From Arcobacter sp. YIC-310 (GTDB lineage Bacteria > Campylobacterota > Campylobacteria > Campylobacterales > Arcobacteraceae): a stretch of 24,000 bases of DNA. This document shows positions 1,741 to 16,115 of this stretch, in pieces (positions within the stretch are counted from its first letter, which is position 1; each line of letters starts with the position of its first letter). The stretch is taken from contig NZ_JBMOVW010000009.1 in the NCBI RefSeq assembly GCF_049472155.1, forward strand, positions 24,755-48,754, written 5' to 3'. The position numbers were made by a program, and so were the translations under genes. A model generated the notes under the pieces. The model was not told where the DNA came from. It saw only the letters and a program-made list of their open reading frames with translations, and made no database searches.

Positions 1741-1799
1741 ATTTAAGTATTTAGTAATTATGAGATTAAGTAAAAACTAGATAAAATCCAATTTTAAAA

Positions 1800-2018
1800 A
1801 ATTAGGTGAATTAGATAATTCATGGGAAATAGGTGTAATTCCTATACTGCCCCCGCAGCGGTAATATGTATATGAAATTCATATAAAAGTTTTAAACCAC
1901 TGTCATTTATGATGGGAAGGGAAACTTTACTTTAAAAAAGTTCATTAAGTCCGAAGACCGACCTAATTAATTAAAATGCAAATATCAGGCGGGGTGACCT
2001 GAAAGTAGGCATATTTTT
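1800..2018 (+). promoter_or_regulatory. Cobalamin (AdoCbl) riboswitch: aptamer about 1800-1968 plus a candidate P13/terminator hairpin about 1976-2018
   Basis: P1 pairs AATTAGGT (1800-1807) with ACCTAATT (1961-1968). The conserved core is GGGAAATAGGTGTAATTCCTATACTGCCCCCGCAGCGGTAA (1824-1864), followed by CCACTG...GGGAAGGG. The B12 box is AAGTCCGAAGACCGACC (1947-1963). A downstream hairpin TCAGG-CGGGGTGA-CCTGA (1985-2002) carries GCGGGG (1989-1994), the exact complement of the L5 sequence CCCCGC (1851-1856). That is a candidate kissing loop. A T-run follows at 2014-2018. Confidence 0.9.
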
Positions 2019-2095
2019 ATTACTTCTTTTAGACAATTTATTGTTTATAACCCTAAATGATTCTTGTATTAATAAAAATATTAATAGGAAGTTTC

Positions 2096-5000
2096 ATGCA
2101 AAAACTAAAAGTTTTTTTTGTTTTTTTCTTCTTTGTTTTTAGTGTTTTATCTCTAAAGGCAAAAGAAAAAACTATTTTTTCTATTGTTTCAGATAGATCT
2201 GTTTCAAGTTTAAATCAAGGTGCAATACACTATTTGAAAAACTCAAATGATAAGATTGCTATAAGAACTGAATCACAAGTTTTAAATATGAGCCAGGCTC
2301 AATTACAAAGCTTAGTAAATAATGCTGACATTGTTTTGTATACAGCTATTTTTGGAGATTTGGTTGAGAGGCTTTTGTCTTTAACTTATCAAAAAGAACA
2401 AATTGTTACAGCTTTACAAGGTGATAGAAGGTTATTAGCTTTAAATCAAGATATTTCAAATGCCAATTATAAGCGTTTACCTTCAAATCTTTTATCAAAA
2501 AAAGAGTTTAAAGACTCATATAAAAATGCTATAAAGCAAAAACAAGAAGAGTTTAAATCTTATGCTTGGTATTTACAAGCAAGAGCGTATTGGGATAATA
2601 GAGGAGTTCAAAATAGTTTAAATTTATTTAAATTTTTGTCTTTAAATACAAATGATAGCTCAAAATGGCCTGAATTTAAAGAGTTAAAACAAATAAGGTA
2701 TTTTTTAAATGCTGATAATTCAAAAACTATTAATTCTCTAAAAGAGTTAAAAAGTAGTATAGATTTTTCAAAAGATATACTTTTTATTTTAGATAATGAT
2801 AAAGCTACTAGTACTTCTTGGCAAATACATAAAAAACTAAAACATAGTTCAAATTTACAGACAGTTTCTATTTTAAGTTCATGGGGAAAAGCAAGTAAAA
2901 AAGCAGTAGAAAGTATAAAAGAAATTATAAAAAATTTAGATAAAAATAAAAGTTTTTCTATTATATCTTTACATGATTTTGTAATTGGAGCTGGTGAAGG
3001 AAGAAGTGAAGTTCTTAAAAGTTTTGAAAGTTTAAATGTACCTATTTTAAAAGCTATAAAAGTCTTAGATAGCTCTTCTTTATCTTATGAATTATCTTCA
3101 CAAGGTTTAGATAAAAATTCAGTTCACTATAGAGTTTCTATGCCAGAACTTCAAGGAATAGGACAAAGTCATGTTGTTGCCATAAATGATTTAACAAAAG
3201 TTGATACTTTAACAGGAGCAAATACTTTTGAATTAAAATTACTTGATAAACAAATTAAAAATTTAGTTAATAAATCAAAAAAATGGATGCTTTTAAATAA
3301 AAAAAATAACAAAGATAAGAAAATAGCAATTGTTTATTATAATCATCCTCCAGGACGACATAATATTGGTGCAGATAATTTAAATGTACCTACAACACTT
3401 TTTGAGATGTTAAAAAGTCTAAAACAAGCAGGTTACGAAGTAGGGGAATTACCAGCTACTCATGAGGCTTTACTTGATTTACTTCAACAAAAAGGTGTAA
3501 ATCTTCCAAATGATAGACAAGCTTTAGAACAACAAAGTAAAAATGTAGAAAAACTAAGTGCAAAAGAGTATAAAGAATACTTTGAAACTCTTCCAAAAGA
3601 TATTCAAGGAGAGATGACAAAAGGCCCTTTGGAAGCTTTACATATAAAAATTGAACAGTTTATAAAAGAAGAATCAAAAGATTTAAATAGTTTAAAAAAA
3701 CAAAAAGTATATAGCTCTTTAAATGACTATATGACTAAGACTATGGATAATTTACATCATGCTTTAGATGGTGTTAGAAGTAAAAGTAGACAAAGAGCTA
3801 TAAATCTTTTGGAACAGTTAAAAGTAGAGTATAAAACTATTTTAGAAAATGCAAAAGAGAATAAAAGCTATAGTTTAAAAAATGCAAATGATTTAAAAAA
3901 TGCCATTATAAATCTACAAATAGAAGGTATAAAAGGTTGGGGTGAACTTCCTGGTGTTGTAATGACTTGGAACAATGAACTGTTAATCCCTTCTGTTAAA
4001 TTTGGAAATATTATATTAGCTCCACAGCCTCCAAGAGGATGGGAATTAAATGAAGAGTTACTTCATGCAAATTTATCTTTTCCTCCAACACATCAATACT
4101 TAGCTTTTTATTACTATTTAAAAAATAATTTCAAAGCTGATGCTATTGTTCATGTTGGAAGACATTCAACTTATGAGTTCTTACCTAGAAAAAGTGTAGG
4201 TTTAAGTGCAAGTGATTATCCCTCACTTATTATTGAAGATATCCCAAGTATTTATCCATATATTGTTGATGGTGTTGGTGAGGGAATACAAGCAAAAAGA
4301 AGAGGTCAAGCTATTATGATTGATCACTTAACTCCTCCTTTGGCAACTACTAAATTATATGATGATTTATTAAATTTGAGATTATTGATTGAAAGTGCTG
4401 AGGCTGCTGTTGATGATAATATTAGAAAAAATGCAATTGTAAAATTAAAAGAGTCAATTGATAAAATGAATCTAAAAGATGAAATTATTGCTAGTATGGA
4501 CGAAGAGTTAAAAGTAAGAGGTATTGGTTTTGATGAGGTTGATGATGAGTTTTTACTTCATGAAGTAGGGCATTATTTAACTCATTTACAAGAAGAGTTT
4601 ATGCCCTTAGGTCTTCACACATTTGGGAAAAACTGGAATGATAAAGCTATAAAAACAATGCTTGAATCAATGAGTAAAGACAATGAAATTTCATTAGAAA
4701 CTAAAGAAAATTTAATAGCTTCACCAAAAGCTGAAATGGAATCTTTTCTAAATGCTTTAAATGGAGGTTTTGTAACAGCTGGAAAAGGAAATGATCCTAT
4801 TAGAACAAATGAAGCTTTACCTACAGGAAGAAATTTTTATGCAATTGATGGGGGATTAATCCCTTCAAGTGTAGGTTATGAAGTAGGGGTAAAACTGGCT
4901 TTAAAAGCAAAACAAAAGAAAAAAGAGTTTCTAAAAAAAGAAGCAGTAATTTTATGGGCTTCTGATACAGTAAGAGATGAAGGAGCTATGATAGCCTTTG

Positions 5001-6448
5001 GTTTAGAGCTTTTAGGAGTTGAGCCTATTTGGAATAGTAGAGGTATTGTAAAAGGTTTACAAAGATTACCCCTAGATACTAAAAGACAAAAAAGATATGA
5101 TATTTTATTTACAGGTTCAGGGCTTTTTAGAGATTTATATGGAACTCAATTGGCACTTTTACATAAAGCAGTTCTTATGGCTTTAGATGCTTCTTATGAT
5201 ACTATCTTGAAGAAATATCCTGCTTTAACTTTAAGTCTTGATAGTGCTTTAAAGCCTTTAGGAGATTTAAGAAAAGGTGGAAATGAGAGCTTAGAAGTAA
5301 ATGCTGTTGCTGCAAATTTTGTAAATGAATTAAGAGAACTTTTAAAGCAAACTCCAAATGCTAATTATGAAACTTTAGGAAAACAAGCTATTCAAAGAGT
5401 TTTTGCTACAGCTCCAGGAGCTTATGGTGCAGGTATAAATAGATTAGTTGAGAGATCAAGTTCGTGGGAAGATAGAAAAGAGTTAGCAAAAGTATTTATT
5501 AAAAGAATGTCTTATTCTTATGGAATACAAGATGAACCACAAGTAGCAACAAAAAGTTTTATAAGACAACTAAAAGAGGTTGAAAGTACTTATCTTGGAA
5601 GAGCAAGTAACCTTTATGGATTAATTGACAATAATGACACTTTTGATTATTTAGGTGGATTAAATTTAGCTATTGAGTCTCTTACAAATAAACAACCAAA
5701 GTCTTATGTGGTTAATCATTCAAACTCTAATGATTTAAAAATTGATGGTTTACAAACGGCACTTTTAAGTGAATTAAGAGGAAGGTTTTTTAATCCTCAA
5801 TGGATAAAACCACTTATGAAAGAGGGATATTCTGGTGCTAGAACTATGGGAAGTGAGTTTATAGAGTATTTATGGGGATGGCAAGTAACTAATCCAGAGA
5901 TTATTAAAGATGGTGTTTGGGAAGAAGTAAAAGCTGTTTATATTGATGATAAATTAGATTTAGGTTTAGATGAATTTTTATCTTCAAATCATCAAGTTCA
6001 TGTTCAAACAAATATTTTAGCTGTGATGTTAGTAGCAATTCAAAAAGACTTTTGGAAAGCAAATGAAAAAACAAAGAAAGAACTATCTCAAAGATTTGCA
6101 CAAAATATTATAAAAAATGGAATTCCAGGAAGTGGACATACTCATTCAAATCATCCTATTTATGAGTTTGTAAAACAAAACATTTCAAAAGAGCAGGCTT
6201 TAAAACTTGCACAAAAAGTTGAAGCTTCAAAACTTCAAAAACAAGAAATTCAAAAAGATGATTATAAATCAGTAAAAGAGATTGAATTAAAAGAACAAAA
6301 GCAAGAAATAAAAGAAAATAAAAAGCAAAAAGAAGAAAGCAAAAATCCAAATGAAAGTTATATAAACTACTTGATAATAGCTGTTTTAGTAGTTTTATTT
6401 GCAGGTTTATTTAACTCACTTGTTTTAAATAGAAAAAAAGGAATATAA
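2096..6448 (+). CDS. CobN/BchH/ChlH-family chelatase large-subunit homolog with N-terminal signal or anchor sequence and C-terminal transmembrane anchor (predicted extracytoplasmic)
   Basis: I prefer the ATG at 2096 (AGGAAG at 2086-2091) over the track start at 2057, which has no RBS. CobN-family motifs: KIAIVYYNHPPGRHNIGA, WGELPG, FGNIILAPQPPRGW, HVGRHSTYEFLPRKSVGLS, MIDHLTPPL, GLHTFG, LNGGFVTAGKGNDPIRTNEALPTGRNFYAID, VILWASDTVRDEGAMIAFGLELLGVEPIWNSRG, YDILFTGSGLFRD, PGAYGAG. The N-terminus MQKLKVFFVFFFFVFSVLSLKA is signal-like. The C-terminus is a K/E/Q-rich low-complexity stretch followed by the helix YLIIAVLVVLFAGLFNSLVL-NRKKGI. Confidence 0.9.
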   Translation: MQKLKVFFVFFFFVFSVLSLKAKEKTIFSIVSDRSVSSLNQGAIHYLKNSNDKIAIRTESQVLNMSQAQLQSLVNNADIVLYTAIFGDLVERLLSLTYQKEQIVTALQGDRRLLALNQDISNANYKRLPSNLLSKKEFKDSYKNAIKQKQEEFKSYAWYLQARAYWDNRGVQNSLNLFKFLSLNTNDSSKWPEFKELKQIRYFLNADNSKTINSLKELKSSIDFSKDILFILDNDKATSTSWQIHKKLKHSSNLQTVSILSSWGKASKKAVESIKEIIKNLDKNKSFSIISLHDFVIGAGEGRSEVLKSFESLNVPILKAIKVLDSSSLSYELSSQGLDKNSVHYRVSMPELQGIGQSHVVAINDLTKVDTLTGANTFELKLLDKQIKNLVNKSKKWMLLNKKNNKDKKIAIVYYNHPPGRHNIGADNLNVPTTLFEMLKSLKQAGYEVGELPATHEALLDLLQQKGVNLPNDRQALEQQSKNVEKLSAKEYKEYFETLPKDIQGEMTKGPLEALHIKIEQFIKEESKDLNSLKKQKVYSSLNDYMTKTMDNLHHALDGVRSKSRQRAINLLEQLKVEYKTILENAKENKSYSLKNANDLKNAIINLQIEGIKGWGELPGVVMTWNNELLIPSVKFGNIILAPQPPRGWELNEELLHANLSFPPTHQYLAFYYYLKNNFKADAIVHVGRHSTYEFLPRKSVGLSASDYPSLIIEDIPSIYPYIVDGVGEGIQAKRRGQAIMIDHLTPPLATTKLYDDLLNLRLLIESAEAAVDDNIRKNAIVKLKESIDKMNLKDEIIASMDEELKVRGIGFDEVDDEFLLHEVGHYLTHLQEEFMPLGLHTFGKNWNDKAIKTMLESMSKDNEISLETKENLIASPKAEMESFLNALNGGFVTAGKGNDPIRTNEALPTGRNFYAIDGGLIPSSVGYEVGVKLALKAKQKKKEFLKKEAVILWASDTVRDEGAMIAFGLELLGVEPIWNSRGIVKGLQRLPLDTKRQKRYDILFTGSGLFRDLYGTQLALLHKAVLMALDASYDTILKKYPALTLSLDSALKPLGDLRKGGNESLEVNAVAANFVNELRELLKQTPNANYETLGKQAIQRVFATAPGAYGAGINRLVERSSSWEDRKELAKVFIKRMSYSYGIQDEPQVATKSFIRQLKEVESTYLGRASNLYGLIDNNDTFDYLGGLNLAIESLTNKQPKSYVVNHSNSNDLKIDGLQTALLSELRGRFFNPQWIKPLMKEGYSGARTMGSEFIEYLWGWQVTNPEIIKDGVWEEVKAVYIDDKLDLGLDEFLSSNHQVHVQTNILAVMLVAIQKDFWKANEKTKKELSQRFAQNIIKNGIPGSGHTHSNHPIYEFVKQNISKEQALKLAQKVEASKLQKQEIQKDDYKSVKEIELKEQKQEIKENKKQKEESKNPNESYINYLIIAVLVVLFAGLFNSLVLNRKKGI

Positions 6449-6898
6449 ATGTTTTCATCTATATCATTAGGTTTAATGCACCAAATAACAAGTATTCTTT
6501 TAGAACCTGTATCTTGGGCACTTTTATTTTTTGTGGCTTTTGCAGTTTATGAAGTGGGAATTACTTTAGGGGAACGATTAAGTGAAATAAATAAACTTAA
6601 AAATAATAGTGATATTTCTTATGTTTTAGCTCATGCAAAAAAAAGAATTGAAAGAGCAGATTTTATCACAAGAATCTCTCCAATGTTAGGACTTATGGGA
6701 ACATTAATTCCCTTAGGTCCTGGGCTTGCTGCACTTGGGGATGGGGATGTTAAAATACTTAGTACAGCTATGCTTGTGGCTTTTGATACAACTGTTTTAG
6801 GTTTACTTGCTGGAATGATTGGTTTTGTAATAGCAAGACTAAGAAGAAGATGGTATGATAATGCTTTAACTTTTATGGAAAAACAAAATGAGAAGTAG
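6449..6898 (+). CDS. Small MotA/TolQ/ExbB-family proton-channel protein (149 aa, 3 predicted TM helices)
   Basis: The ATG directly abuts the upstream stop (TAAATG at 6446-6451). There are hydrophobic helices at the N-terminus, at ISPMLGLMGTLIPLGPGLAAL and at TTVLGLLAGMIGFVIARL. The G(L/M)xGT...L....A(L/F).TT..GL pattern is the ExbB/TolQ signature. Confidence 0.8.
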   Translation: MFSSISLGLMHQITSILLEPVSWALLFFVAFAVYEVGITLGERLSEINKLKNNSDISYVLAHAKKRIERADFITRISPMLGLMGTLIPLGPGLAALGDGDVKILSTAMLVAFDTTVLGLLAGMIGFVIARLRRRWYDNALTFMEKQNEK

Positions 6899-7193
6899 AT
6901 TTTCAAGTGAGCATTTTTCAAAAGAAGATGATGAACCTTTAGGGCCTTTGGCAAACTTAGTTGATATTATTTTAGTTTTTGCTTGTGGTTTAATAGCAGC
7001 GCTTGTAGCTATAAATCCAAATTTACAAGATCATTTTAATGTAGAGCAAAAACAAGAAATAAAACAAGGCAAAGAGTTAGCTAATATTCCAAAAGATTTA
7101 AAAAACAATCAAAACTCAAGTAAGGGTTATGAGTCCTTAGGACAAGTTTATAAAGACCCTAAAACAGGAAAGTTAATCTTAATTAGTGAATAA
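6888..7193 (+). CDS. DUF2149-like single-pass membrane protein (ExbD/TolR-like topology)
   Basis: The ATG overlaps the upstream gene by 11 nt. The translation EDDEPLGPLANLVDIILVFACGLIAALVAI is an acidic N-terminus followed by one TM helix and a short soluble tail. The assignment to DUF2149 is from memory of that family's PL.NL.D..LVFA.GL motif. Confidence 0.6.
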   Translation: MRSRFSSEHFSKEDDEPLGPLANLVDIILVFACGLIAALVAINPNLQDHFNVEQKQEIKQGKELANIPKDLKNNQNSSKGYESLGQVYKDPKTGKLILISE

Positions 7194-7203
7194 AGAGTAA
7201 ATT

Positions 7204-8289
7204 TTGGCAGAACTTTTAAAAAATGTATATACTAATAAGTACATACAAAATTTAGCAAAAGAGATTGAAGTTTTTTATAAAGATTTTGATAAACAGGCTT
7301 TTGAAACTTCTATTTTTAATCAAACTTGGAAAAACTTAGAATTAAAACAGAGAATGAGACATATAGCTATTTCTTTAAATAAGCATTTGCCTTTCTCTTA
7401 TGAAAAAAAATTAGAGGTTTTAAAACAAACATCACGTAGTTTTACTGGTTTTGAAGCTATGTTTTTTCAAGACTTTGTGGAAGTTTTTGGCTTAGAGGAT
7501 TTGGAAAACTCTTTGATGGCTTTAGAAATTTTTACAATTGATAGTAGTAGTGAATTTGCTATAAGAGCATTTATTTTAAAATATGAAGAAGAAACTTTAA
7601 AGCAAATGAGACTTTGGGCAAAGAGTGAAAATGAACATTTAAGAAGATTATCAAGTGAGGGATGTCGTCCAAGGCTTCCTTGGGGAGTGTCTCTTCCTCG
7701 ATTTAAAAATGATCCTTCAAAAGTTTTGGAAATAATTGAACTTCTTAAAAATGATGAGAGCAAATATGTTCAAAAAAGTGTTGCTAATAATTTAAATGAC
7801 ATATCAAAAGATAATCCAAATATAGTAATAGAATTTGTTTCTAAAAATCTTGGTAAAAATAAAAATCTTGATTGGATATGTAAGCATGCAAGTAGAACAC
7901 TACTTAAAAAAGGTGATATTAAAATATTAAAACTTTTTGGATATGAAGTAGCTTCTCATATAAACATAATAGATTTTAATTATGATTCTTGTGTAAAAAA
8001 AGAAGGTATATTTAATTTTTCTTTTAATCTTGAAAGTACTGATAAGTTAGGAAATATAAGAGTAGAATATGCTATTTATTATAAAAAAGCTAATGGTAAT
8101 TATTCTAAAAAAGTATTTATGATAAGTCAAAATGAACAAAAAACAAAAACTAAAAGCTTTGTTAAAAAGCAAAGTTTTAAAGACTTAACTACAAGAAAAC
8201 ACTATTTGGGAGAGCATTTTATCTCTATTATTTTAAATGGTGAAGAAAAAATAAAAAGGAGTTTTATTTTAAATGACACCAGCAATTAA
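7204..8289 (+). CDS. DNA alkylation repair protein (AlkC/AlkD-like HEAT-like-repeat glycosylase family) with an extra C-terminal domain
   Basis: The start is TTG at 7204 (in-frame TAA at 7198-7200), 10 nt after the upstream stop. The motif LRRLSSEGCRPRLPWGVSLPRFKNDPSKVLEIIELLKNDESKYVQKSVANNLNDISKDNPNIV is characteristic of the DNA_alkylation family. The approximately 130-aa C-terminal beta-rich tail fits the AlkC-type Ig-like domain. Confidence 0.7.
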   Translation: MAELLKNVYTNKYIQNLAKEIEVFYKDFDKQAFETSIFNQTWKNLELKQRMRHIAISLNKHLPFSYEKKLEVLKQTSRSFTGFEAMFFQDFVEVFGLEDLENSLMALEIFTIDSSSEFAIRAFILKYEEETLKQMRLWAKSENEHLRRLSSEGCRPRLPWGVSLPRFKNDPSKVLEIIELLKNDESKYVQKSVANNLNDISKDNPNIVIEFVSKNLGKNKNLDWICKHASRTLLKKGDIKILKLFGYEVASHINIIDFNYDSCVKKEGIFNFSFNLESTDKLGNIRVEYAIYYKKANGNYSKKVFMISQNEQKTKTKSFVKKQSFKDLTTRKHYLGEHFISIILNGEEKIKRSFILNDTSN

Positions 8290-8740
8290 TTTACTTAAAA
8301 AAAATAAATGTGAATTTAAAATACATAAGTATGACCATGATCCTGCTTGTGAAAACTATGGGCAAGAAGCAGCCCAAAAATTAAATCTTGATGAAAACCA
8401 AGTTTTTAAGACACTTTTAGTTGAATTATCACCAAAAGAGTTAGTAGTTGCAGTTCTTCCTGTTTCAAAGCAGCTAAATTTAAAAGAAGTAGCAAATGCT
8501 TTTAAAACTAAAAAAGCTGTGATGGCAAATAAGCAAGAAGCTCAAAAAGTAACAGGATATTTACTTGGAGGAATATCTCCTTTAGGGCAGAAAAAAAGAT
8601 TAAAAACTGTTATTGATGAAAGTGCAAAAAGCTATCAAACTATCTTTGTAAGTGGTGGTAAGAGAGGTTTAGATATTGAAGTAAACCCTAAAGATTTAAT
8701 CAAGCTTTTAAATGCACATTTTTTTAAGGTTACATCCTAG
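8273..8740 (+). CDS. ybaK: Cys-tRNA(Pro)/Cys-tRNA(Cys) deacylase YbaK
   Basis: MTPAINLLKKNKCEFKIHKYDHDP...FKTLLVEL...VVAVLPVSKQLNLKEVA...TGYLLGGISPLGQKKRLKTVIDES...IFVSGGKRGLDIEV is full-length collinear with YbaK. The gene overlaps the upstream gene by 17 nt. Confidence 0.9.
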   Translation: MTPAINLLKKNKCEFKIHKYDHDPACENYGQEAAQKLNLDENQVFKTLLVELSPKELVVAVLPVSKQLNLKEVANAFKTKKAVMANKQEAQKVTGYLLGGISPLGQKKRLKTVIDESAKSYQTIFVSGGKRGLDIEVNPKDLIKLLNAHFFKVTS

Positions 8741-8845
8741 TAACAAATATATTATTTTTTTATAAAAAACCCAAGCTTTTAATCATTTCTTAACTTATAA
8801 AGAGTAAGATATTATAAAATAACTTAATAAGAAAAGGAAAAATTG

Positions 8846-11800
8846 ATGGCTAATTCGGATATGCAAGCAATTTGTTCACAACTTTTAACACCTGATGATT
8901 TAGCAGTTAGCGATGAGCTTTTTGAAGAGGTTTTAAAAGAAGGGATTGTTTCTAAAATTTTAGATGGAAAAGATACAAAATATATAAAAATCTTTTCTAC
9001 AAAAAAACTATTTTTATCTCATATAACTCCTTTATTGCATAATATTGGCTTTGAAATTATTGATGAAGTTACATATAATGTTTCACATAATAATAAAGAG
9101 ATTTATATTTCAAGATTTAACTTGAATGTTCCTGATATTTCAAAATTAGAAGAAGCCAAAGATAACTTAGAATATGTTATTGCTAGTAGTTTAAAAGATT
9201 CAAATATTAAGCATTCTAAGGCATTTTGTTTAGTATATAAGCAAAATTTATCAATAAAAAAAATAAAACTTTTAAGAGCCTTTATAGAGTATATAGATCA
9301 AGCAGTACTTACTATAAATTCTGCAACTATTTTAAACACACTTACAAAGCATGATAGATTAGCTTGTATGTTTGTTAAGTATTTTATAACGAAATTTGAT
9401 CCAAATTTAAAAGATAGAAAAAAAGAATTAACTTTAATTGAAGAAAAAATAAAAGATGAAATTAAAGCAATTCCTCAAATTATTGATGACAAAGTTTTAA
9501 ATATTACATTCTTATTTTTAAAATCACTTTTAAGAACAAATTATTTTTTAGATAAAGAGACTATTTCTTTTAAAATTGATACAAGAACTTTTGGTAAAGA
9601 CTTAAGAGGTTTACAACCAAATTTTGAAAACTTTATCTATCATCAAGATTTTTATGGGGTTCACTTAAGAATGTCAAAGGTATCAAGAGGTGGTCTTAGA
9701 TGGTCAGATAGACATGATGATTATAGACAAGAGATTAAATCTTTAATGATTACGCAAGAAGGTAAAAACTCTATTATTATACCTGATGGTTCAAAAGGTG
9801 GTTTTGTAATCAATAAAAATACTGCTGATATTACAAAAGAGTTTTTTACTTATGTTTATTCTGAGTTTATTAATGCAAACCTTGATTTAGTTGATAATAT
9901 GGTAGATGGAGAAGTTGTTAAAAATAATGATATAGTTGCTTATGATGGTGATGATCCATATTTTGTAGTTGCTGCTGATAAGGGAACTGCTGCAATGAGT
10001 GATGTGGCAAATAATATAGCAATAAGTAGAAACTATTGGTTAGGTGATGCTTTTGCTAGTGGTGGTAGTAATGGATATGGACATAAAGATTTAGGAATTA
10101 CAGCACGTGGTTCTATCATGTCTACTAAGAGGTTTTTTATTGAAGAAGGTATTGATATTTACAAAGATGAAGTTTCAGTTGTAGGAATTGGTTCTATGAG
10201 TGGAGATGTTTTTGGAAATGGAATGATTGAATCTGAAAAATTTAAACTTCTTGCTGCTATTTCTCACAGTGATATATTTATTGATCCAAATCCTGACTTA
10301 AAGGTATCTTTTAAAGAGAGAAAAAGACTTTTTGAGTCAAAAAATGGTGGTTGGAAAAACTATGATACAAAACTTATTTCTAAAGGTGGAGGAGTATTCA
10401 AAAGAAGTGATAAAGAAATAAATCTTTCATCTGAAATAAAAAAACTATTAGGAACTACTAAAAAAGTAATTTCAGGAGAGGAATTATGTCGTAGGTTATT
10501 AACACTTGAAGTAGATATGTTATTTAATGGTGGAGTTGGAACTTATGTAAAAGCAAGTGATGAAAATAATTTAGATTTAGGTGATAAACAAAATGAAGCA
10601 GTAAGAGTTGATGCAAATGAAATTAAAGCAAAAATAGTATGTGAAGGTGGAAATCTAGGATTTACTCAAAGAGCAAGAATAGAGTATGCTTTAACTGGTG
10701 GAAGAATTCATCAAGATGCAATTGATAATGCAGCAGGAGTTAATACATCAGATCATGAAGTAAATTTAAAAATTTTACTTAATAGTATAAAAGCACAAGG
10801 AGTTTTAACACAAAAGCAAGTTCAAGAAACACTTTATTCTTTAACAGATCAAGTTGTAGATATGGTTTTACAAAATAACTATGATCAAGCTTTTGTAATT
10901 TCAATAGATGAACATTTTTCAAGAAAATATTTAAATGATTTTATAAAAACTATAGAGGTATTAGAAAATAATGTTGAAGCATTTAATAGAAGAGATTTCT
11001 ATATTCCTAAAAATGAAAATATTAGTGAAATAGTAGATATACATGGTTCAATTGTAAGACCAGTGTTAGGTTCTTTATTATCTTACAGTAAAATTTTTGT
11101 TAAAAAAATATTATTAGAATCAAATTTAATTGATGAACAATTTGCTCAACAATATTTATACAGATATTTCCCTAAATCTTTTGTTGGTGCTTATGAACAT
11201 GATATTTCTACTCATCCACTAAAAAGAGAAATAATAGCTACAATGATGGCAGATATTATTATAAATTCTCAAGGGTGTACTTTTGTAAGTGATTTTGAAA
11301 AGTTAGGTATTGATAAGTTTTTATTAAAAATCAAATCTTATCTAATAATAAAACAGCTATTTGGGGCTAGAGTAATTAGACAAAAAATCTATAATCAAGA
11401 TTATGTAATGAGTGTAGAAAAACAGTATAAGCTTATAAATAAACTAGAGTATACTTTATATGCAAGTACAAGATGGATGTTAAAGTACCTAAATAAAAAT
11501 CAGTTAGATTCTTCACATATTTTAGATCATAAAGAAGAACTATTTAGGCTATTATCTGAAGTTCATAACCAAAAAATAGAAGTTTTAATTCAAAATGATG
11601 CTGATTTTAATCAGTTTTTCTCAGTAATTGATTATTTAAGATTTGCTATTGCTGCTATCATGATTAAAGAAGATACTCATCATACATTTAAAGATGTAAT
11701 TATTTTATTCTATTCATTAATTCATGAGTTTAATATTTTAGAAATTGTAATTGCTTTAAATAGGGTAAAAATAACAAATAAAAGTGATATGACATTAAGA

Positions 11801-12031
11801 AATCAAGTCTTACAGTTTATAGATTTTATTGTTGTTCATTATACAAAAAGAGTTTTAGAGTTTAAAAGAGTAAATGAAGAACCTGATACTGCTTTTGCTA
11901 ATTTTGTTACAAATGAAAAAGATATTTTTTATAAAGTAAGAGCTCATTTGGATACTTTTATGGCAAAAGAAACAAAGGATATAAAAGATATAGCTATTAC
12001 TGTTAATCAATTAATGGTTTCATTAATATAA
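8846..12031 (+). CDS. gdh: NAD-specific glutamate dehydrogenase, large (Bac_GDH) type, about 1061 aa
   Basis: The ATG at 8846 is preferred, with AAGGAAAA upstream (the track uses the TTG at 8843). The catalytic-core motifs VSRGGLRWSDRHDDYRQEIKSLMITQEGKNSIIIPDGSKGGF, VVAADKGTA, GYGHKDLGITARG, GSMSGDVFGNGM, EGGNLGFTQRARIEY and DAIDNAAGVNTSDHEVNLKILL match the large NAD-GDH family. Confidence 0.9.
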   Translation: MANSDMQAICSQLLTPDDLAVSDELFEEVLKEGIVSKILDGKDTKYIKIFSTKKLFLSHITPLLHNIGFEIIDEVTYNVSHNNKEIYISRFNLNVPDISKLEEAKDNLEYVIASSLKDSNIKHSKAFCLVYKQNLSIKKIKLLRAFIEYIDQAVLTINSATILNTLTKHDRLACMFVKYFITKFDPNLKDRKKELTLIEEKIKDEIKAIPQIIDDKVLNITFLFLKSLLRTNYFLDKETISFKIDTRTFGKDLRGLQPNFENFIYHQDFYGVHLRMSKVSRGGLRWSDRHDDYRQEIKSLMITQEGKNSIIIPDGSKGGFVINKNTADITKEFFTYVYSEFINANLDLVDNMVDGEVVKNNDIVAYDGDDPYFVVAADKGTAAMSDVANNIAISRNYWLGDAFASGGSNGYGHKDLGITARGSIMSTKRFFIEEGIDIYKDEVSVVGIGSMSGDVFGNGMIESEKFKLLAAISHSDIFIDPNPDLKVSFKERKRLFESKNGGWKNYDTKLISKGGGVFKRSDKEINLSSEIKKLLGTTKKVISGEELCRRLLTLEVDMLFNGGVGTYVKASDENNLDLGDKQNEAVRVDANEIKAKIVCEGGNLGFTQRARIEYALTGGRIHQDAIDNAAGVNTSDHEVNLKILLNSIKAQGVLTQKQVQETLYSLTDQVVDMVLQNNYDQAFVISIDEHFSRKYLNDFIKTIEVLENNVEAFNRRDFYIPKNENISEIVDIHGSIVRPVLGSLLSYSKIFVKKILLESNLIDEQFAQQYLYRYFPKSFVGAYEHDISTHPLKREIIATMMADIIINSQGCTFVSDFEKLGIDKFLLKIKSYLIIKQLFGARVIRQKIYNQDYVMSVEKQYKLINKLEYTLYASTRWMLKYLNKNQLDSSHILDHKEELFRLLSEVHNQKIEVLIQNDADFNQFFSVIDYLRFAIAAIMIKEDTHHTFKDVIILFYSLIHEFNILEIVIALNRVKITNKSDMTLRNQVLQFIDFIVVHYTKRVLEFKRVNEEPDTAFANFVTNEKDIFYKVRAHLDTFMAKETKDIKDIAITVNQLMVSLI

Positions 12032-12108: not shown

Positions 12109-12321
12109 ATGGAAAAAAAAGATTTCGATGATGAATTAAGTATGGATAAGATAGATGACTACAATGGCAATGAGTCTGAAGAAAAAAGAAATACAGTAAG
12201 AAATGTAATAATTATTTTATTAATAGTTGGAGCAGTTTTTGCGTATTTTAAAAGCACGTCTATACCAGATGATTATGTAGGCACAAGTGAAAATCCAGGA
12301 ATAAACACAAGTAAAAAATAA
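12109..12321 (+). CDS. Hypothetical small membrane protein (70 aa; acidic N-terminus, one TM helix)
   Basis: AAAGGA lies 8 nt upstream of the ATG. The TM helix is VIIILLIVGAVFAYF. The stop is 7 nt before the next gene, which suggests an operon. I recognised no family. Confidence 0.5.
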   Translation: MEKKDFDDELSMDKIDDYNGNESEEKRNTVRNVIIILLIVGAVFAYFKSTSIPDDYVGTSENPGINTSKK

Positions 12322-12328
12322 GGTAAAT

Positions 12329-13639
12329 ATGACACAGTTTTATGATTTTTTTAAATATCATCAAGAAACAAAACATTCTTATTATTCTGTTAGGGCTTTC
12401 CCTAACAGGCTTGATTGGAATAATCAACCAAGTACATTTAAAAACTATCCAAAAGAATATGAACGTATTGATATAAATACAAATTTAGATAATCACAATT
12501 TTTTATATTTAACAGCAGGTATAAACGCTAAAAAAGTATATCCAGGTGTTGAATACTTTTTAAGAATTAACCCAAGTGCTGGAGCTCTTTATCCAAATGA
12601 AATTTATTTTCAAGCTAGAAATGAAGAAGGTTTTGAAGATGGTATTTATCATTTTGAAGTAAGCTCTTCAAGTGCAACTTTACTTTATAAATTAAATAAA
12701 GAAGAGGGGATAGAAGCAAACCTAAATTTGGATAAAAGTTATAATGGTTTTATATTTTTTATATCTTCAATTTATTTTAGATCTTCATGGAAATATAAAA
12801 ATAGAGCTTTTAGGTATTGTTTATTAGATGCTGGACATATTTTAGGTTCTCTTGAAGCTTCATCATATCTTTATAATAAAAGTTTTTCTATTCTTTATGA
12901 TTTTGATAGGAATAAAATAAATAAACTTTTTAATTTTGATAATAAAGAGTTTTTTACTTCAATTGTTTTGTGTGGGAAGGTTTTTGATGAATTAAAAAAA
13001 CCTTTGTCTTTGAATCTTCCTAGGGTAGATGGTCATAAAACAAATGAAAATAATAGTGATGATATTTTTGAAAAAAATGAATTAATTGAAAATGCCTATA
13101 AACTCTCATCTAAAATAAATAATAAAATAGTACAATTAGGAAAACCAAACTTTATTTATAATAAAGAGCTTTTTAAAGAGACTATTTTTAAAAGAAGATC
13201 TATACGAGAATTCTCAAATAAGTCTATTTCAAAAGCTCAGTATGAATCTATAATAAATATATTAAATCAAATAATCAGCTCTGATTGTGATGAGAAAATT
13301 GATATTTTTTATGTAATAAATAGGGTAGAAAATATGCCTATTGGTTTATATAAAAATAAAAAACTTATAAAGCAAGGTGATTTTAAATCAAAAGCTGGAT
13401 ATCTATGTCTTGAACAAGATTTAGGAAAAAGTAGTGCAATTACTTTTTACTTAACTTCAAAAGATAAAAACTATCAAGCTTTATATCAAAAAGCAGGTAT
13501 TCTTGGTCATAGGTTATATCTTGCTTGTAATTACTTAAAGATATCTTGTAGTGGGATAGGTGCTTATTATGATGATGAAGTTTGTGAGTTTATAGATGAA
13601 AACTGTATGGTTTTATATTCATTAGCTATTGGTAATTAA
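12329..13639 (+). CDS. SagB/ThcOx-type dehydrogenase (tandem nitroreductase-fold protein)
   Basis: The N-terminus YHQETKHSYYSVRAFPNRLDWNNQPSTFKNYP and LYLTAGINAKKVYPGVEYFLRINPSAGALYPNEIYF form the SagB-type dehydrogenase domain signature. The second half (RRSIREFSNKSIS...LGHRLYLACNYLKISCSGIGAYYDDEV) is a second nitroreductase-like domain. Confidence 0.8.
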   Translation: MTQFYDFFKYHQETKHSYYSVRAFPNRLDWNNQPSTFKNYPKEYERIDINTNLDNHNFLYLTAGINAKKVYPGVEYFLRINPSAGALYPNEIYFQARNEEGFEDGIYHFEVSSSSATLLYKLNKEEGIEANLNLDKSYNGFIFFISSIYFRSSWKYKNRAFRYCLLDAGHILGSLEASSYLYNKSFSILYDFDRNKINKLFNFDNKEFFTSIVLCGKVFDELKKPLSLNLPRVDGHKTNENNSDDIFEKNELIENAYKLSSKINNKIVQLGKPNFIYNKELFKETIFKRRSIREFSNKSISKAQYESIINILNQIISSDCDEKIDIFYVINRVENMPIGLYKNKKLIKQGDFKSKAGYLCLEQDLGKSSAITFYLTSKDKNYQALYQKAGILGHRLYLACNYLKISCSGIGAYYDDEVCEFIDENCMVLYSLAIGN

Positions 13640-13651
13640 GGAAAAAAAAGA

Positions 13652-14326
13652 ATGGATAAAATTAGAATACTTTTAATTGAAGATGAGAAAATGATAGCTG
13701 AAAATCTTAAATCAGTTATTGAAAATTTTGGATATGAAGTAGTTGATATTGTTGATACAGCAGAAGAGGCTTTGGAAGTTGCTTTTGATACAAATATAGA
13801 TGTTGTTGTTTCTGATATTGAAATTAGAGGTTTAACAGATGGAATTGAAGTTTCAAAAATATTACAAAATACATATAATTTACCAATTATTTTTACAACA
13901 GCTTATAATGATGAAGAAAAAATCAAAAGAGCTTCTGATGTTGTAAATATGGTAGGATATTTAGTAAAACCAATAAGAATTGATGAATTAGATACTATGA
14001 TTAAAATCGCTATTTCAAAATATCAAATCTTAGAAAAAAGAAAAATGAAAAACATAAATGATGTATACAAATATGATTTTGAGAATAAAAAGATATATGA
14101 AGGTGATGAAGAGATTGTCCTTACTAGAAATGAAAGTATTTTATTATCATTACTTATTAATTCAATGGGTGGAATCTTAGAGTATGAAGCTGTAAATACT
14201 GCTATTTGGAAAGATAAAAAAGGTTCTGATGTAGCAAGAAGACAGTTAATTCATAGACTAAAATCAAAATTAGAAAAAATAGATATTGCTTCTGAAAAGG
14301 GAGTTGGAATTTATATAAAAGCATAA
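13652..14326 (+). CDS. Two-component response regulator, REC plus OmpR/PhoB-type winged-helix domain (no cognate kinase in window)
   Basis: REC motifs: IRILLIEDE, DVVVSDIEI (putative phospho-Asp), IIFTTAY, GYLVKP. C-terminal motifs: LTRNESILLSLLINSMGGILEYEAVNTAIW...ARRQLIHRLKSKL. AAGGA is the RBS. The gene starts 12 nt after the upstream stop. Confidence 0.9.
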   Translation: MDKIRILLIEDEKMIAENLKSVIENFGYEVVDIVDTAEEALEVAFDTNIDVVVSDIEIRGLTDGIEVSKILQNTYNLPIIFTTAYNDEEKIKRASDVVNMVGYLVKPIRIDELDTMIKIAISKYQILEKRKMKNINDVYKYDFENKKIYEGDEEIVLTRNESILLSLLINSMGGILEYEAVNTAIWKDKKGSDVARRQLIHRLKSKLEKIDIASEKGVGIYIKA

Positions 14327-14935: not shown

Positions 14936-15535
14936 ATGTCAATAGATACAAAAAATATAGTTGAATGTTATGGGTGTGGACTTTTTGTAGAAAAAAGAAA
15001 GAAAACCTGGGATAAAAAAATCAAATGTCCTAGATGTTCAAGCAAACTTTCAATTGAAAATAATCATAGTTTAGATTCACTATTTTATGCTATATCTGCA
15101 CTTTTACTTTTTGTACTTTTAAATATCTATCCACTTATAAGTTTGGATATAAATAATTCACATCTAAAATCAACATTATATGATACTATTTTGACTTTAT
15201 TTGAGCAAAATCTTTTTTTTGTTGCTTTAATAGTCTTTTTTACTATTTTTTTAGCTCCGGTTTTAAATTCGATTATAATAATATTTTCATTTATTCAAAT
15301 TCATACAAATATTAAATTATTTACAAATACTTTATTGCATGATAGTTTAAACTTTTTTAAGCATTGGGGGTTTATTGAAGTTTTTATTATAAGTGTGATT
15401 GTAACTTATATTAAATTAGTAGGAATGGCAGATAGTACAAGGTTTGATTTAGGTTTTTATGTAATGCTTTTATATTTATTTTGTTTATATATGTCAAATA
15501 TAAAGTTTGATGGAAGGGAAGTTTTTGAAGAATAA
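14936..15535 (+). CDS. PqiA/LetA-family integral membrane protein, N-terminal-half equivalent (split gene 1 of 2)
   Basis: Zn-ribbon-like CYGCG...(17 aa)...CPRCSSKL is followed by multiple TM helices. At 199 aa it is about half the length of E. coli PqiA/YebS. Confidence 0.85.
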   Translation: MSIDTKNIVECYGCGLFVEKRKKTWDKKIKCPRCSSKLSIENNHSLDSLFYAISALLLFVLLNIYPLISLDINNSHLKSTLYDTILTLFEQNLFFVALIVFFTIFLAPVLNSIIIIFSFIQIHTNIKLFTNTLLHDSLNFFKHWGFIEVFIISVIVTYIKLVGMADSTRFDLGFYVMLLYLFCLYMSNIKFDGREVFEE

Positions 15536-16115
15536 GTGTTTAATTTCATGTAAAAACTGCCATAAAGTTTTCGAAAAGCCAAATTATGATAATTTTGTAT
15601 GTGATAGATGTGGTCATATTGTAAGAAAAAGAATATATCACTCTTTACAAATATCACTAGCCTTAGTTATAAGTGCTATACTTTTATATATTCCAGCTAT
15701 GGTTTATCCAATGATGGAAATTACTAAATTTGGGGTAACAACACAAAGCACTATTTTAGAAGGTGTTATTAGTTTTTTAGAATATGAAAACTATTTTATA
15801 GCAGCAGTTGTTTTTATCGCTAGTGTAGTTATTCCTGTTATTAAACTTATTGGTTTATTGCTGATTTTTTCTACTTTAAAAGTACGTGTAAAAATGAGTA
15901 ATAAAACAAAACTTTTCATATTTAAGTTTATTGAGATTATAGGAAAATGGTCAATGATTGATATTTATGTTGTTGCTATTATGGCATCAATAGTTCAAAT
16001 GGATCAACTTTTTAATATCAAAGGAGGAATTGCTGCAACCTCTTTTGCTTTAGTAGTGGTAATTACAATGATAGCTGCATATAGATTTGATACAAGGATA
16101 ATTTGGGATGAGTAG
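15510..16115 (+). CDS. PqiA/LetA-family integral membrane protein, C-terminal-half equivalent (split gene 2 of 2)
   Basis: It has its own Zn-ribbon-like motif CKNCH...(12 aa)...CDRCGH and TM helices, and contains WSMIDIYVVAIM (PqiA motif). The start is ATG at 15510 (TTG at 15507), overlapping the upstream gene by 26-29 nt in another frame. Confidence 0.85.
   Translation: MEGKFLKNKCLISCKNCHKVFEKPNYDNFVCDRCGHIVRKRIYHSLQISLALVISAILLYIPAMVYPMMEITKFGVTTQSTILEGVISFLEYENYFIAAVVFIASVVIPVIKLIGLLLIFSTLKVRVKMSNKTKLFIFKFIEIIGKWSMIDIYVVAIMASIVQMDQLFNIKGGIAATSFALVVVITMIAAYRFDTRIIWDE

Follow-up and report, generated by a model that had tools for sequence, protein, structure and literature searches.

In Arcobacter sp. 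YIC-310 (Campylobacterota; NCBI RefSeq assembly GCF_049472155.1), we analyzed a 24,000-nt stretch of contig NZ_JBMOVW010000009.1 (positions 24,755 to 48,754 of the forward strand; hereafter the window), in which a cobalamin (B12) riboswitch is followed on the + strand by three open reading frames (ORFs; 2057/2096-6448, 6449-6898 and 6888-7193) encoding a large CobN-like protein (gene 1), a minimal MotA/TolQ/ExbB-family protein (gene 2) and a single-pass DUF2149 protein (gene 3) (Table 1). A first-pass annotation, made from the sequence alone, had proposed that the three genes are translationally coupled, and both junctions are as it described them: the TAA of gene 1 and the ATG of gene 2 abut (TAAATG, 6446-6451), and an 11-nt overlap (6888-6898) joins gene 2 to gene 3. 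It had also placed a B12 aptamer upstream of the three genes, and the RF00174 search returned a full-length match there, which is the sole Rfam match at the gathering threshold in the window; no tRNA genes were found in the same stretch.

Table 1 Features of the riboswitch and three-gene locus, in positions of the window
Feature	Position	Strand	Evidence
Promoter-like site ATGAGA-16 nt-TAAAAT, directly 5' of the aptamer	1760-1787	+	consensus scan, 9/12 matches
Cobalamin riboswitch aptamer	1787-1980	+	RF00174 full model 1-189/189, 87.7 bits vs. gathering 31.5, E = 1e-20
Conserved hairpin UCAGG-CGGGGUGA-CCUGA	1985-2002	+	invariant or near-invariant across Campylobacterota leaders
Conserved leader element AUGAUUCUUGUAUUAAU...AUUAAUAGGAAGUUUCAUG	2057-2098	+	alignment of 10 Campylobacterota leaders; holds ATG 2057, Shine-Dalgarno AGGAAG 2084-2089 and ATG 2096
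Gene 1, CobN/ChlH-family protein of BtuS/HmuS-like type, 1450 aa	2096-6448	+	PF02514 CobN-Mg_chel, E = 4.7e-241
Gene 2, minimal three-transmembrane MotA/TolQ/ExbB-family protein, HmuU-like, 149 aa	6449-6898	+	PF01618 MotA_ExbB, E = 2.9e-10, 40.4 bits vs. gathering 22.9
Gene 3, single-pass DUF2149 protein, HmuV-like, 101 aa	6888-7193	+	PF09919, E = 7.2e-12

Relatives were collected in a one-genome-per-species scan that found 533, of which the best 80 loci, from four phyla, were analyzed with 10-kb flanks. The small-gene counts over 79 refer to loci with an intact gene 1 ORF, the window included, and the small genes were scored with hidden Markov models built from the two small proteins and searched on translated downstream DNA. 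Gene 2 lies directly downstream of gene 1 in 78/79 loci and gene 3 downstream of gene 2 in 76/79; contig ends account for two of the misses, leaving a single locus that truly lacks both small genes. When the window and the two contig ends are set aside, 75 of the 76 remaining related loci have both small genes after gene 1, which supports an obligate unit of the three genes. The exception (L073:9845-14353, from Bacterioplanoides) is the sole locus in which an intact gene 1 homolog with an upstream riboswitch has neither an ExbB-like nor a DUF2149 gene downstream.

The riboswitch is likewise conserved. A covariance model of the aptamer core, built from 22 loci, gave a + strand match at most 600 nt upstream of gene 1 in 60/80 loci, and in 12 more loci the match lay 2-4 kb upstream with only same-strand genes between. 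Spot checks with Rfam confirmed 5/8 weak matches and placed RF00174 upstream of gene 1 at two loci that the core model had scored as negative. The tally of same-strand cobalamin riboswitches thus stands at no fewer than 71 of the 80 loci, spanning Campylobacterota, Gamma- and Betaproteobacteria, Nitrospinota and Nitrospirota, as expected from the B12-riboswitch control first proposed. Since riboswitch and triad are near-universal and every other gene is found in at most 28/80 loci, the invariant unit is riboswitch, CobN-like gene, ExbB-like gene and DUF2149 gene. Within this set, gene 1 homologs are 60-87% identical in Arcobacteraceae and 43-53% identical in marine Gammaproteobacteria (Oleispira, Methylophaga, Zhongshania, Spongiibacter, Colwellia, Marinobacterium and Vibrio) as well as in Nitrosomonas, Nitrospinota and Nitrospirota.

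In the window, the core of the aptamer scores 81.3 bits with the model built here. The promoter-like site is a candidate only, as the region holds no more such sites than shuffled sequence does. Downstream of the aptamer, the loop of the 1985-2002 hairpin contains GGGG and could be the L13 kissing-loop partner of the CCCCC run in the aptamer (1850-1855). The 2057-2098 element is a candidate hairpin that would sequester the Shine-Dalgarno sequence and the start codon; its fold energy of -9.2 kcal/mol (z = -1.8) is not statistically supported, and the ten Campylobacterota leaders show no covariation in it because the sequence does not vary. No intrinsic terminator was found on the + strand, either in the leader or 3' of gene 3, and the lack of one in the leader suggests translational rather than terminator control. 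Cobalamin would then repress the operon at the level of translation, with weak structural support from the leader itself. Upstream of the 80 related loci, a search for Zur or Fur boxes gave nothing convincing.

Gene 1 is collinear with the CobN family, as the first-pass annotation had it, with a PF02514 match that extends to profile position 1089/1090, and shares 99% identity with an Arcobacter sp. YIC-80 protein that carries the annotation CobN. Its start had been placed at ATG 2057, a codon that lies inside the leader element that is near-invariant in ten Campylobacterota relatives; we correct it to ATG 2096, which is preceded by the AGGAAG Shine-Dalgarno sequence and gives the 1450-aa length of the public annotation and of all relatives. 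By hydropathy, the N-terminus combines a K-rich n-region with a 15-residue hydrophobic core (MQKLKVFFVFFFFVFSVLSLKA, followed by KEK) in a signal or anchor at nt 2096-2167, and the C-terminus consists of an E/K/Q-rich spacer of ~70 residues, a transmembrane (TM) helix at ~nt 6353-6433 and the basic tail NRKKGI. A C-terminal TM helix with a short R/K-rich tail is conserved in 76/79 homologs; no fewer than 63/79 also have a hydrophobic segment at the N-terminus. Because the n-region is positively charged and the C-terminal helix ends in a basic tail, the positive-inside rule would place the ~1400-residue body on the periplasmic side, where the spacer would connect it to the C-terminal helix as its tether, a predicted topology that agrees with the exported one first proposed.

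Several features of the gene 1 body bear on its possible chemistry. Its full-length PF02514 match and its two catalytic motifs, HVGRHS and GEGIQAKRR, make it a member of the class-I chelatase superfamily, and the patterns HxGRHS and GEGxQAKRR recur in 79/79 homologs. We take the Glu of GEGIQAKRR to be the equivalent of ChlH Glu-660. The His of HVGRHS is the equivalent of His-538 of the heme dechelatase HmuS, which is essential for dechelation (PMC12583661). An insertion of ~100 residues specific to the clade (~507-630, window ~3614-3985) carries an invariant HALDGxR motif, and a GSGHTHxxH His cluster precedes the linker (residues ~1345-1353, window ~6128-6154) in 45/79 relatives, which make up the half of the clade nearer to gene 1; the corresponding site in HmuS holds a Cys-x4-Cys motif. 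Both the insertion and the His cluster are possible metal hand-off sites. Compared with solved structures, gene 1 matches HmuS best (9d26, 344 bits, 1e-101), about as well as it matches CobN (331 and 303 bits; 9uk9 at 1e-97) and ChlH (301 bits), and on these scores appears roughly equidistant from all three.

The small membrane proteins were likewise examined against the families they had been assigned to. Gene 2 was described as a minimal MotA/TolQ/ExbB-type protein and can be retained as such, having a PF01618 match above gathering, three hydrophobic stretches and a family profile that matches MotA 6ysl (E = 0.007). It is much smaller than typical MotA/TolQ/ExbB proteins (230-300 aa, with a large cytoplasmic domain), having only ~35 residues between TM1 and TM2. 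Its invariant motifs are LGLMGTLIPLGPGL (LGLMGT) and AFDTT, whose threonines we equate with the TM2 and TM3 Thr lining the ExbB/TolQ proton path. Gene 3 has its TM segment at residues 17-47, and Asp26 at the start of this segment is invariant in both a 22-homolog and a 29-homolog set; the gene 2 Thr and this Asp presumably correspond to the proton-path residues of ExbB/TolQ and ExbD/TolR.

The comparison of gene 3 to ExbD/TolR survives for topology (a single N-terminal pass with an invariant TM Asp) and finds no support for homology. It has no PF02472 match, and hhalign gives 4.8% probability against Escherichia coli ExbD and 1.2% against TolR (both reference sequences entered by hand), placing Asp26 on ExbD D25 and TolR D23 without statistical support. 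In place of the ~90-residue periplasmic alpha/beta domain of ExbD/TolR, gene 3 has ~55 residues after the TM segment, modeled by AlphaFold from a 29-sequence alignment as two short strands with a predicted local distance difference test score (pLDDT) of 65. Given their co-occurrence with gene 1 and their conserved Thr and Asp, it is plausible that genes 2 and 3 form a stator powered by the proton-motive force (PMF) that drives the chelatase homolog.

The public name of gene 1, 'cobaltochelatase subunit CobN', is misleading. Gene 1 scores 627, 586 and 532 bits with the NCBIfam/TIGRFAM CobN equivalog models, whose cut-offs are 1619, 1248 and 822 bits, and BchH can be set aside as well, gene 1 lying far below all NCBIfam equivalog cut-offs. 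CobN is soluble and cytoplasmic, whereas gene 1 has a predicted N-terminal signal or anchor and a C-terminal TM helix. CobS/CobT or ChlI/ChlD partners, sought in cis only, were found neither in the window nor among the gene clusters conserved across the 80 loci, and no AAA+ partner is conserved in cis.

HmuS orthology was also rejected. The HmuS motif LSLDHxxEFMGG (His-1209, Glu-1212) is present in 0/79 relatives; at its position gene 1 carries LIDNNDTFDYLGG / DNNDTFDYLGG, and the residue that aligns with His-1209 is Asp in 71/79 relatives and in both solved CobNs (LLDSDDYYQF, IADSDDYFQY). The HGR motif of HmuS (His-254) aligns to an invariant Asp plus a 2-residue deletion and Gly-80 to I/T/V/A/S, a mapping made indirectly through an alignment with four HmuS-type representatives rather than with the Bacteroides thetaiotaomicron sequence itself. 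The Met-rich insertion of domain IV (~120 residues) is absent, the segment being ~200 residues shorter with a maximum of 6 Met per 120 aa. Neither is the locus an hmuYRSTUV operon: HmuY, HmuR and HmuT are missing here, only HmuU- and HmuV-like genes are found, and the operon has a B12 riboswitch and no Fur-like box.

Searching the whole library with the last 432 residues of gene 1 returned 1367 cluster representatives, among which the gene 1 clade is sharply bounded (identity at least 44% inside, at most 40% outside). Of the 87 closest full-length representatives, 59 have Asp and 15 have His at the position of HmuS His-1209, only four are true HmuS-type, and most have hydrophobic N- and C-termini; doubly anchored and apparently exported CobN-like proteins are therefore a large and mostly unstudied group of chelatase homologs in which HmuS is one minor branch. 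Among the published types, gene 1 fits BtuS. Gene 1 is CobN-like, accompanied by a B12 element, distinct from CobN/ChlH, not tied to ChlI/ChlD and predicted to be exported, which are the features by which BtuS is recognized in Rocha 2018 (PMC6460266), as cited there from Rodionov 2003.

Four groups of characterized or described systems resemble the window triad in part. The first is the hmu system of B. thetaiotaomicron and Porphyromonas gingivalis (hmuYRSTUV; structure 9d26), in which a large CobN/ChlH protein with TM anchors at both ends faces the periplasm and is followed, in gene order, by MotA/TolQ/ExbB-family and DUF2149-type proteins, and in which the catalytic His is kept (HFGTHG in HmuS, HVGRHS here). 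The first-pass annotation had noted this likeness correctly (PMC12583661, PMC12094164). The periplasmic topology of HmuS is itself assumed (PMC12583661), and BtuS1 and BtuS2 are predicted to be alike (PMC6460266). The window operon differs in having a B12 riboswitch in place of iron control, in lacking HmuY, HmuR and HmuT, and in lacking His-1209/Glu-1212, Met-79/Gly-80 and the His-254-Gly-Arg motif.

The second is the BtuS1 locus of Bacteroides fragilis, likened here by its description (PMC10100974; Rocha 2018 Fig. S3). As cited in PMC6460266, Rodionov et al. 2003 defined BtuS as a third, B12-regulated type of CobN, proposed to act in metalloporphyrin salvage. Meslé et al. 2023 described hmu-like operons with upstream cobalamin riboswitches and suggested a role in cobalamin metabolism (PMC10100974). 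The BtuS1 locus has a CobN-like gene with a B12 element, predicted to be exported and anchored, with TolQ-like and DUF2149 neighbors; cobalamin-pathway genes also lie nearby, and a cobalamin rather than heme role had already been suggested. Unlike the bare Arcobacter triad, it includes TonB-dependent receptors, PiuB, a YodA-like calycin, CbiK and corrin-ring genes. The third is PA1922-PA1925 of Pseudomonas aeruginosa (receptor, CobN-like protein, an 'ExbD' of the MotA-ExbB family, and DUF2149), likened by family, with the same three families in the same order; it is Zur regulated, 44- to 147-fold up in a znuA mutant, and was proposed to acquire cobalt or zinc (PMC4542158). The window triad has no preceding receptor, and the 80 loci yielded no Zur-like box in their upstream regions, so that the Zur control of the P. 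aeruginosa triad does not, to judge from these regions, extend to the gene 1 clade.

The fourth comprises two kinds of machine that resemble the parts. Gene 1 shares with CobNST/ChlHID (9uk9, 7c6o, 4zhj) the six-domain PF02514 body, the catalytic His and Glu and a CobN-type Asp in an LLDSDDYYQF-like motif. The CobNST and ChlHID enzymes work as soluble proteins in the cytoplasm, with AAA+ (CobS/ChlI) and vWA (CobT/ChlD) subunits to drive them, whereas gene 1 is predicted to be exported and doubly anchored, with a ~100-aa insertion, a linker plus TM helix and no AAA+ partner in cis. Genes 2 and 3 share with ExbB-ExbD, TolQ-TolR and MotA-MotB a PF01618 member with LGxxGT and a TM3 Thr, a single-pass partner with an invariant TM Asp, and adjacent, overlapping genes. 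They lack the cytoplasmic domain (gene 2), any detectable ExbD/TolR domain (gene 3) and a TonB, TolA or peptidoglycan-binding partner. The only candidate effector of the pair would be gene 1 itself, through its helical linker and C-terminal TM helix. The trio of CobN-like, TolQ-like and DUF2149 proteins is found in three further, differently regulated settings, namely the iron-regulated hmu operon (PMC12094164), the B. fragilis BtuS1 locus with CbiK and corrin-ring genes, and PA1922-25. That the trio is kept while regulators and receptors vary argues that the pair serves the chelatase homolog rather than a receptor.

The earlier description of the system as uncharacterized and novel was overstated: BtuS, hmu-like riboswitch operons and PA1922-25 had all been published (PMC6460266, PMC10100974, PMC4542158). 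The triad is a conserved system whose architecture and B12 link had already been described in silico. What is new here is the bare riboswitch-triad in Campylobacterota, the near-universal pairing of riboswitch and triad across a bounded multi-phylum clade and, as far as motifs can tell, the absence of HmuS-defining features in this clade together with retention of the catalytic ones.

Neighboring genes, counted from Pfam annotation of recurrent gene clusters, connect the triad to B12 in other taxa. TonB-dependent receptors are the next most frequent neighbor (28/80 loci), and any late-pathway B12 gene or BtuF-like gene occurs in 25/80, with a TonB-like protein in 1/80. The B12-related neighbors include CbiA/CobB a,c-diamide synthase (12 loci), CobO/BtuR adenosyltransferase (15), PduO-type adenosyltransferase (4), CobQ (8), CbiB (14), a CobD-like aminotransferase (18), a CobC-type phosphatase (10), CobU (7), CbiZ with CN-hydrolase (5), a BluB-like nitroreductase (5) and BtuF-like proteins (9), which sustains the proposed link to cobalt or corrinoids. 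In Colwellia, for instance, a single riboswitch is followed by an unknown gene, CbiA/CobB, genes 1, 2 and 3, and CobO, such that CbiA/CobB and CobO bracket the chelatase exactly as they bracket the cobalt-insertion step of the aerobic pathway. A Thiohalophilus locus (L066) reads receptor, TonB, PduO-type adenosyltransferase, BtuF-like protein and gene 1, and a Nitrospinota locus reads receptor, triad, CbiA and tetrapyrrole methylase.

Two groups of unassigned proteins were noticed at these loci. A 207-241-aa protein with no Pfam match comes first after the cobalamin riboswitch in Colwellia-type loci, as an unannotated member of the B12 regulon (L026:7765-8388, L027, L028, L030, L032, L034, L061, L074 and, on the - strand, L053:8626-9351), and precedes either CbiA/CobB with the triad or CobC with CbiB. 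In two Marinobacterium loci (L031 and L040, ~15200-17700), a 459-aa protein with no Pfam match and then FolE2 lie downstream of the triad; FolE2 is the zinc-independent GTP cyclohydrolase typical of Zur regulons, an echo of the zinc link of PA1922-25.

Our best reading, which on balance we consider probable when taken as a whole, is that gene 1 is a BtuS-type CobN paralog, related to the HmuS heme dechelatase but not itself one, and that the module supplies cobalt or a usable cobalt-corrinoid under B12 limitation through periplasmic handling of a metal-tetrapyrrole, with PMF drive provided by the small membrane pair. When adenosylcobalamin (AdoCbl) is scarce, the riboswitch would free the ribosome-binding site, and the three proteins would be made in a coupled fashion and act as one inner-membrane complex. 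The chelatase body would then handle a metal-tetrapyrrole or metal-corrinoid pair outside the cytoplasm, yielding cobalt or cobalt-corrinoid for B12 synthesis or salvage. Gene 1 keeps the catalytic His and Glu of the superfamily and has a CobN-type Asp where HmuS and ChlH have His. As there is no ATP in the periplasm and no linked AAA+ partner, the drive most likely comes from the proton gradient via the ExbB-like/DUF2149 pair. Catalysis, its direction, the substrate (a corrinoid or another cobalt chelate) and the coupling to PMF are parts of the scheme that we infer. On direction, the CobN-type Asp and the CbiA...CobO bracketing lean toward cobalt insertion, while the HmuS precedent, the zinc/cobalt link of PA1922-25 and the receptor, YodA-like metal-binding protein and CbiK of the B. 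fragilis locus lean toward metal harvesting. A more specific form, in which the triad is a PMF-driven extracytoplasmic cobalt (de)chelatase acting on corrinoids, loading metal-free or mis-metallated ones or stripping unusable ones, we regard as doubtful.

A number of observations weigh against this assignment of function. We know of no enzyme that removes cobalt from a corrin and of no documented metal-free corrinoids in the environment. The riboswitch-linked members are known from sequence alone, and the periplasmic location of the gene 1 body is predicted rather than measured. Homology of DUF2149 to ExbD/TolR was not supported, with PF02472 not matching even at E <= 10 and a PDB profile search giving only noise. 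In Campylobacterota the triad stands alone, with no B12 or transport genes found in the flanks searched. HmuTUV are dispensable for the in vitro activity of HmuS, which proceeds with NADH (PMC12583661), so that in this relative the chemistry does not need the small pair, and a btuS1 btuS2 double mutant of B. fragilis still released protoporphyrin (PMC6460266).

Receptors near 28/80 loci, the Thiohalophilus arrangement described above, the proposal that PA1924 serves the receptor PA1922 and a DuBois-lab figure legend in which HmuU/HmuV power HmuR in the hmu operon would all fit a different division of labor, in which the pair is a Ton-like motor for an outer-membrane TonB-dependent receptor that imports the substrate, and the CobN-like protein acts independently in the periplasm. 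We consider this unlikely. The CobN-like gene has the pair beside it in 75/76 related loci, while a receptor is nearby in only 28/80 and a TonB-like protein in 1/80; no receptor was found in cis in the window or in the other Campylobacterota loci; and gene 2 is without the ExbB cytoplasmic domain, as DUF2149 is without the ExbD periplasmic domain that contacts TonB.

It is quite unlikely that gene 1 is a non-enzyme, that is, a tethered, BtuF/BtuG-like periplasmic protein that binds and hands off corrinoid or Co(II), with the pair as part of the uptake route. Transporters are commonly under B12 riboswitch control, and BtuF-like genes are adjacent to the triad in some loci, but the catalytic His and Glu are invariant in 79/79 homologs, which a pure binder would not be expected to keep, and the heme-binding residues of the HmuS head and neck are not conserved. 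Very improbable, in our estimate, is an ordinary cytoplasmic CobN whose substrate is hydrogenobyrinic acid a,c-diamide and whose CobS/CobT partners are encoded at another locus. Scores far below the CobN equivalog cut-offs, a match to HmuS as good as that to CobN, conserved hydrophobic termini with positive-inside charges, the ~100-aa clade-specific insertion and linkage to two membrane proteins but never to CobS/CobT in the 80 loci all speak against it, despite the public name, the PF02514 match, the CobN-type Asp motif, the B12 riboswitch and the CbiA/CobB...CobO bracketing in Colwellia. Finally, an hmu-type heme-iron harvesting system with an HmuS ortholog and an incidental riboswitch is scarcely credible even though the best PDB match is HmuS and the partner genes belong to the same families as HmuU and HmuV (PMC12094164), since the His-1209/Glu-1212 motif is absent in 79/79, the Met-rich insertion is missing, the His-254 position is an invariant Asp, no hmuY/hmuR genes or Fur/Zur boxes were found and the riboswitch is conserved across phyla.

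Beyond the triad, the window encodes an AraC fragment, IPMS-like, DNA_alkylation-like and YbaK-like proteins, an NAD-specific glutamate dehydrogenase (NAD-GDH), a SagB-like dehydrogenase, a response regulator, a globin, PqiAB, an NmrA/DUF2867 protein, DUF7897 and HtpG. Profile searches agree with the earlier statement that no AAA+ partner, TonB, BtuB or BtuFCD lies in the window: ChlI/ChlD, CobS/CobT, TonB, BtuB and BtuFCD genes were found neither there nor in a further 10 kb of upstream sequence from the genome of Arcobacter sp. YIC-80 (GCA_044841725.1), whose gene order is identical to that of the window, and this upstream region also yielded no B12 genes. A literature search on B12 synthesis in Arcobacter gave nothing.

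Several neighbors are of interest in their own right. Directly after the triad, a DNA_alkylation/HEAT-like gene with a TTG start 10 nt after the gene 3 stop and an overlapping YbaK/tRNA_edit gene (window 7204-8740) may be co-transcribed with it and under riboswitch control, as there is no terminator after the triad; this order of triad, DNA_alkylation and YbaK genes recurs in two relatives (L009 and L011) and not in the others. A 70-aa ORF of no known family lies directly upstream of the SagB-family dehydrogenase (TIGR03605, 98 bits) and response regulator (window 12109-14326), an arrangement conserved in the same two loci, and ORF and dehydrogenase could be a small pair for modification of a peptide resembling ribosomally synthesized and post-translationally modified peptides. 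Two successive ORFs of ~200 aa that overlap represent PqiA, each matching the same C-terminal half of the PqiA profile, and are followed by a PqiB-like protein with seven MlaD domains (window 14936-18762). The NAD-GDH (window 8843-12031) is of the large bacterial type, with 1062 aa as against the roughly 1600 aa of such enzymes, and appears to be without much of their N-terminal region. In the flank of one related locus, we found a glycine riboswitch (RF00504, 54 bits; L056:11551-11668, - strand) unrelated to the triad.

Class-I chelatases are textbook cytoplasmic, ATP-driven machines, and HmuS (2025) provided an exported relative able to run the chelatase reaction backwards on heme. The gene 1 clade is a sister group wired to B12 sensing, present in at least four phyla and packaged with an ExbB-like/DUF2149 pair. 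If the (de)chelatase reading is true, the triad would carry out the first periplasmic step of B12 metabolism and would contain the first class-I chelatase with an ExbB/ExbD-like stator in place of the AAA+ motor, the stator acting via the C-terminal TM helix and linker of gene 1 in a mirror image of the TolA/TonB arrangement. The clade offers a genetically tractable entry to the roles of CobN paralogs outside cob operons and to the question of how periplasmic chelatase homologs are energized. As the chelatase genes of such triads are annotated 'cobaltochelatase subunit CobN', predictions of aerobic B12 synthesis will be inflated in genomes and metagenomes. Most of the hosts are marine, where cobalt and B12 are scarce, and a scavenging role would bear on the cycling of B12 there.

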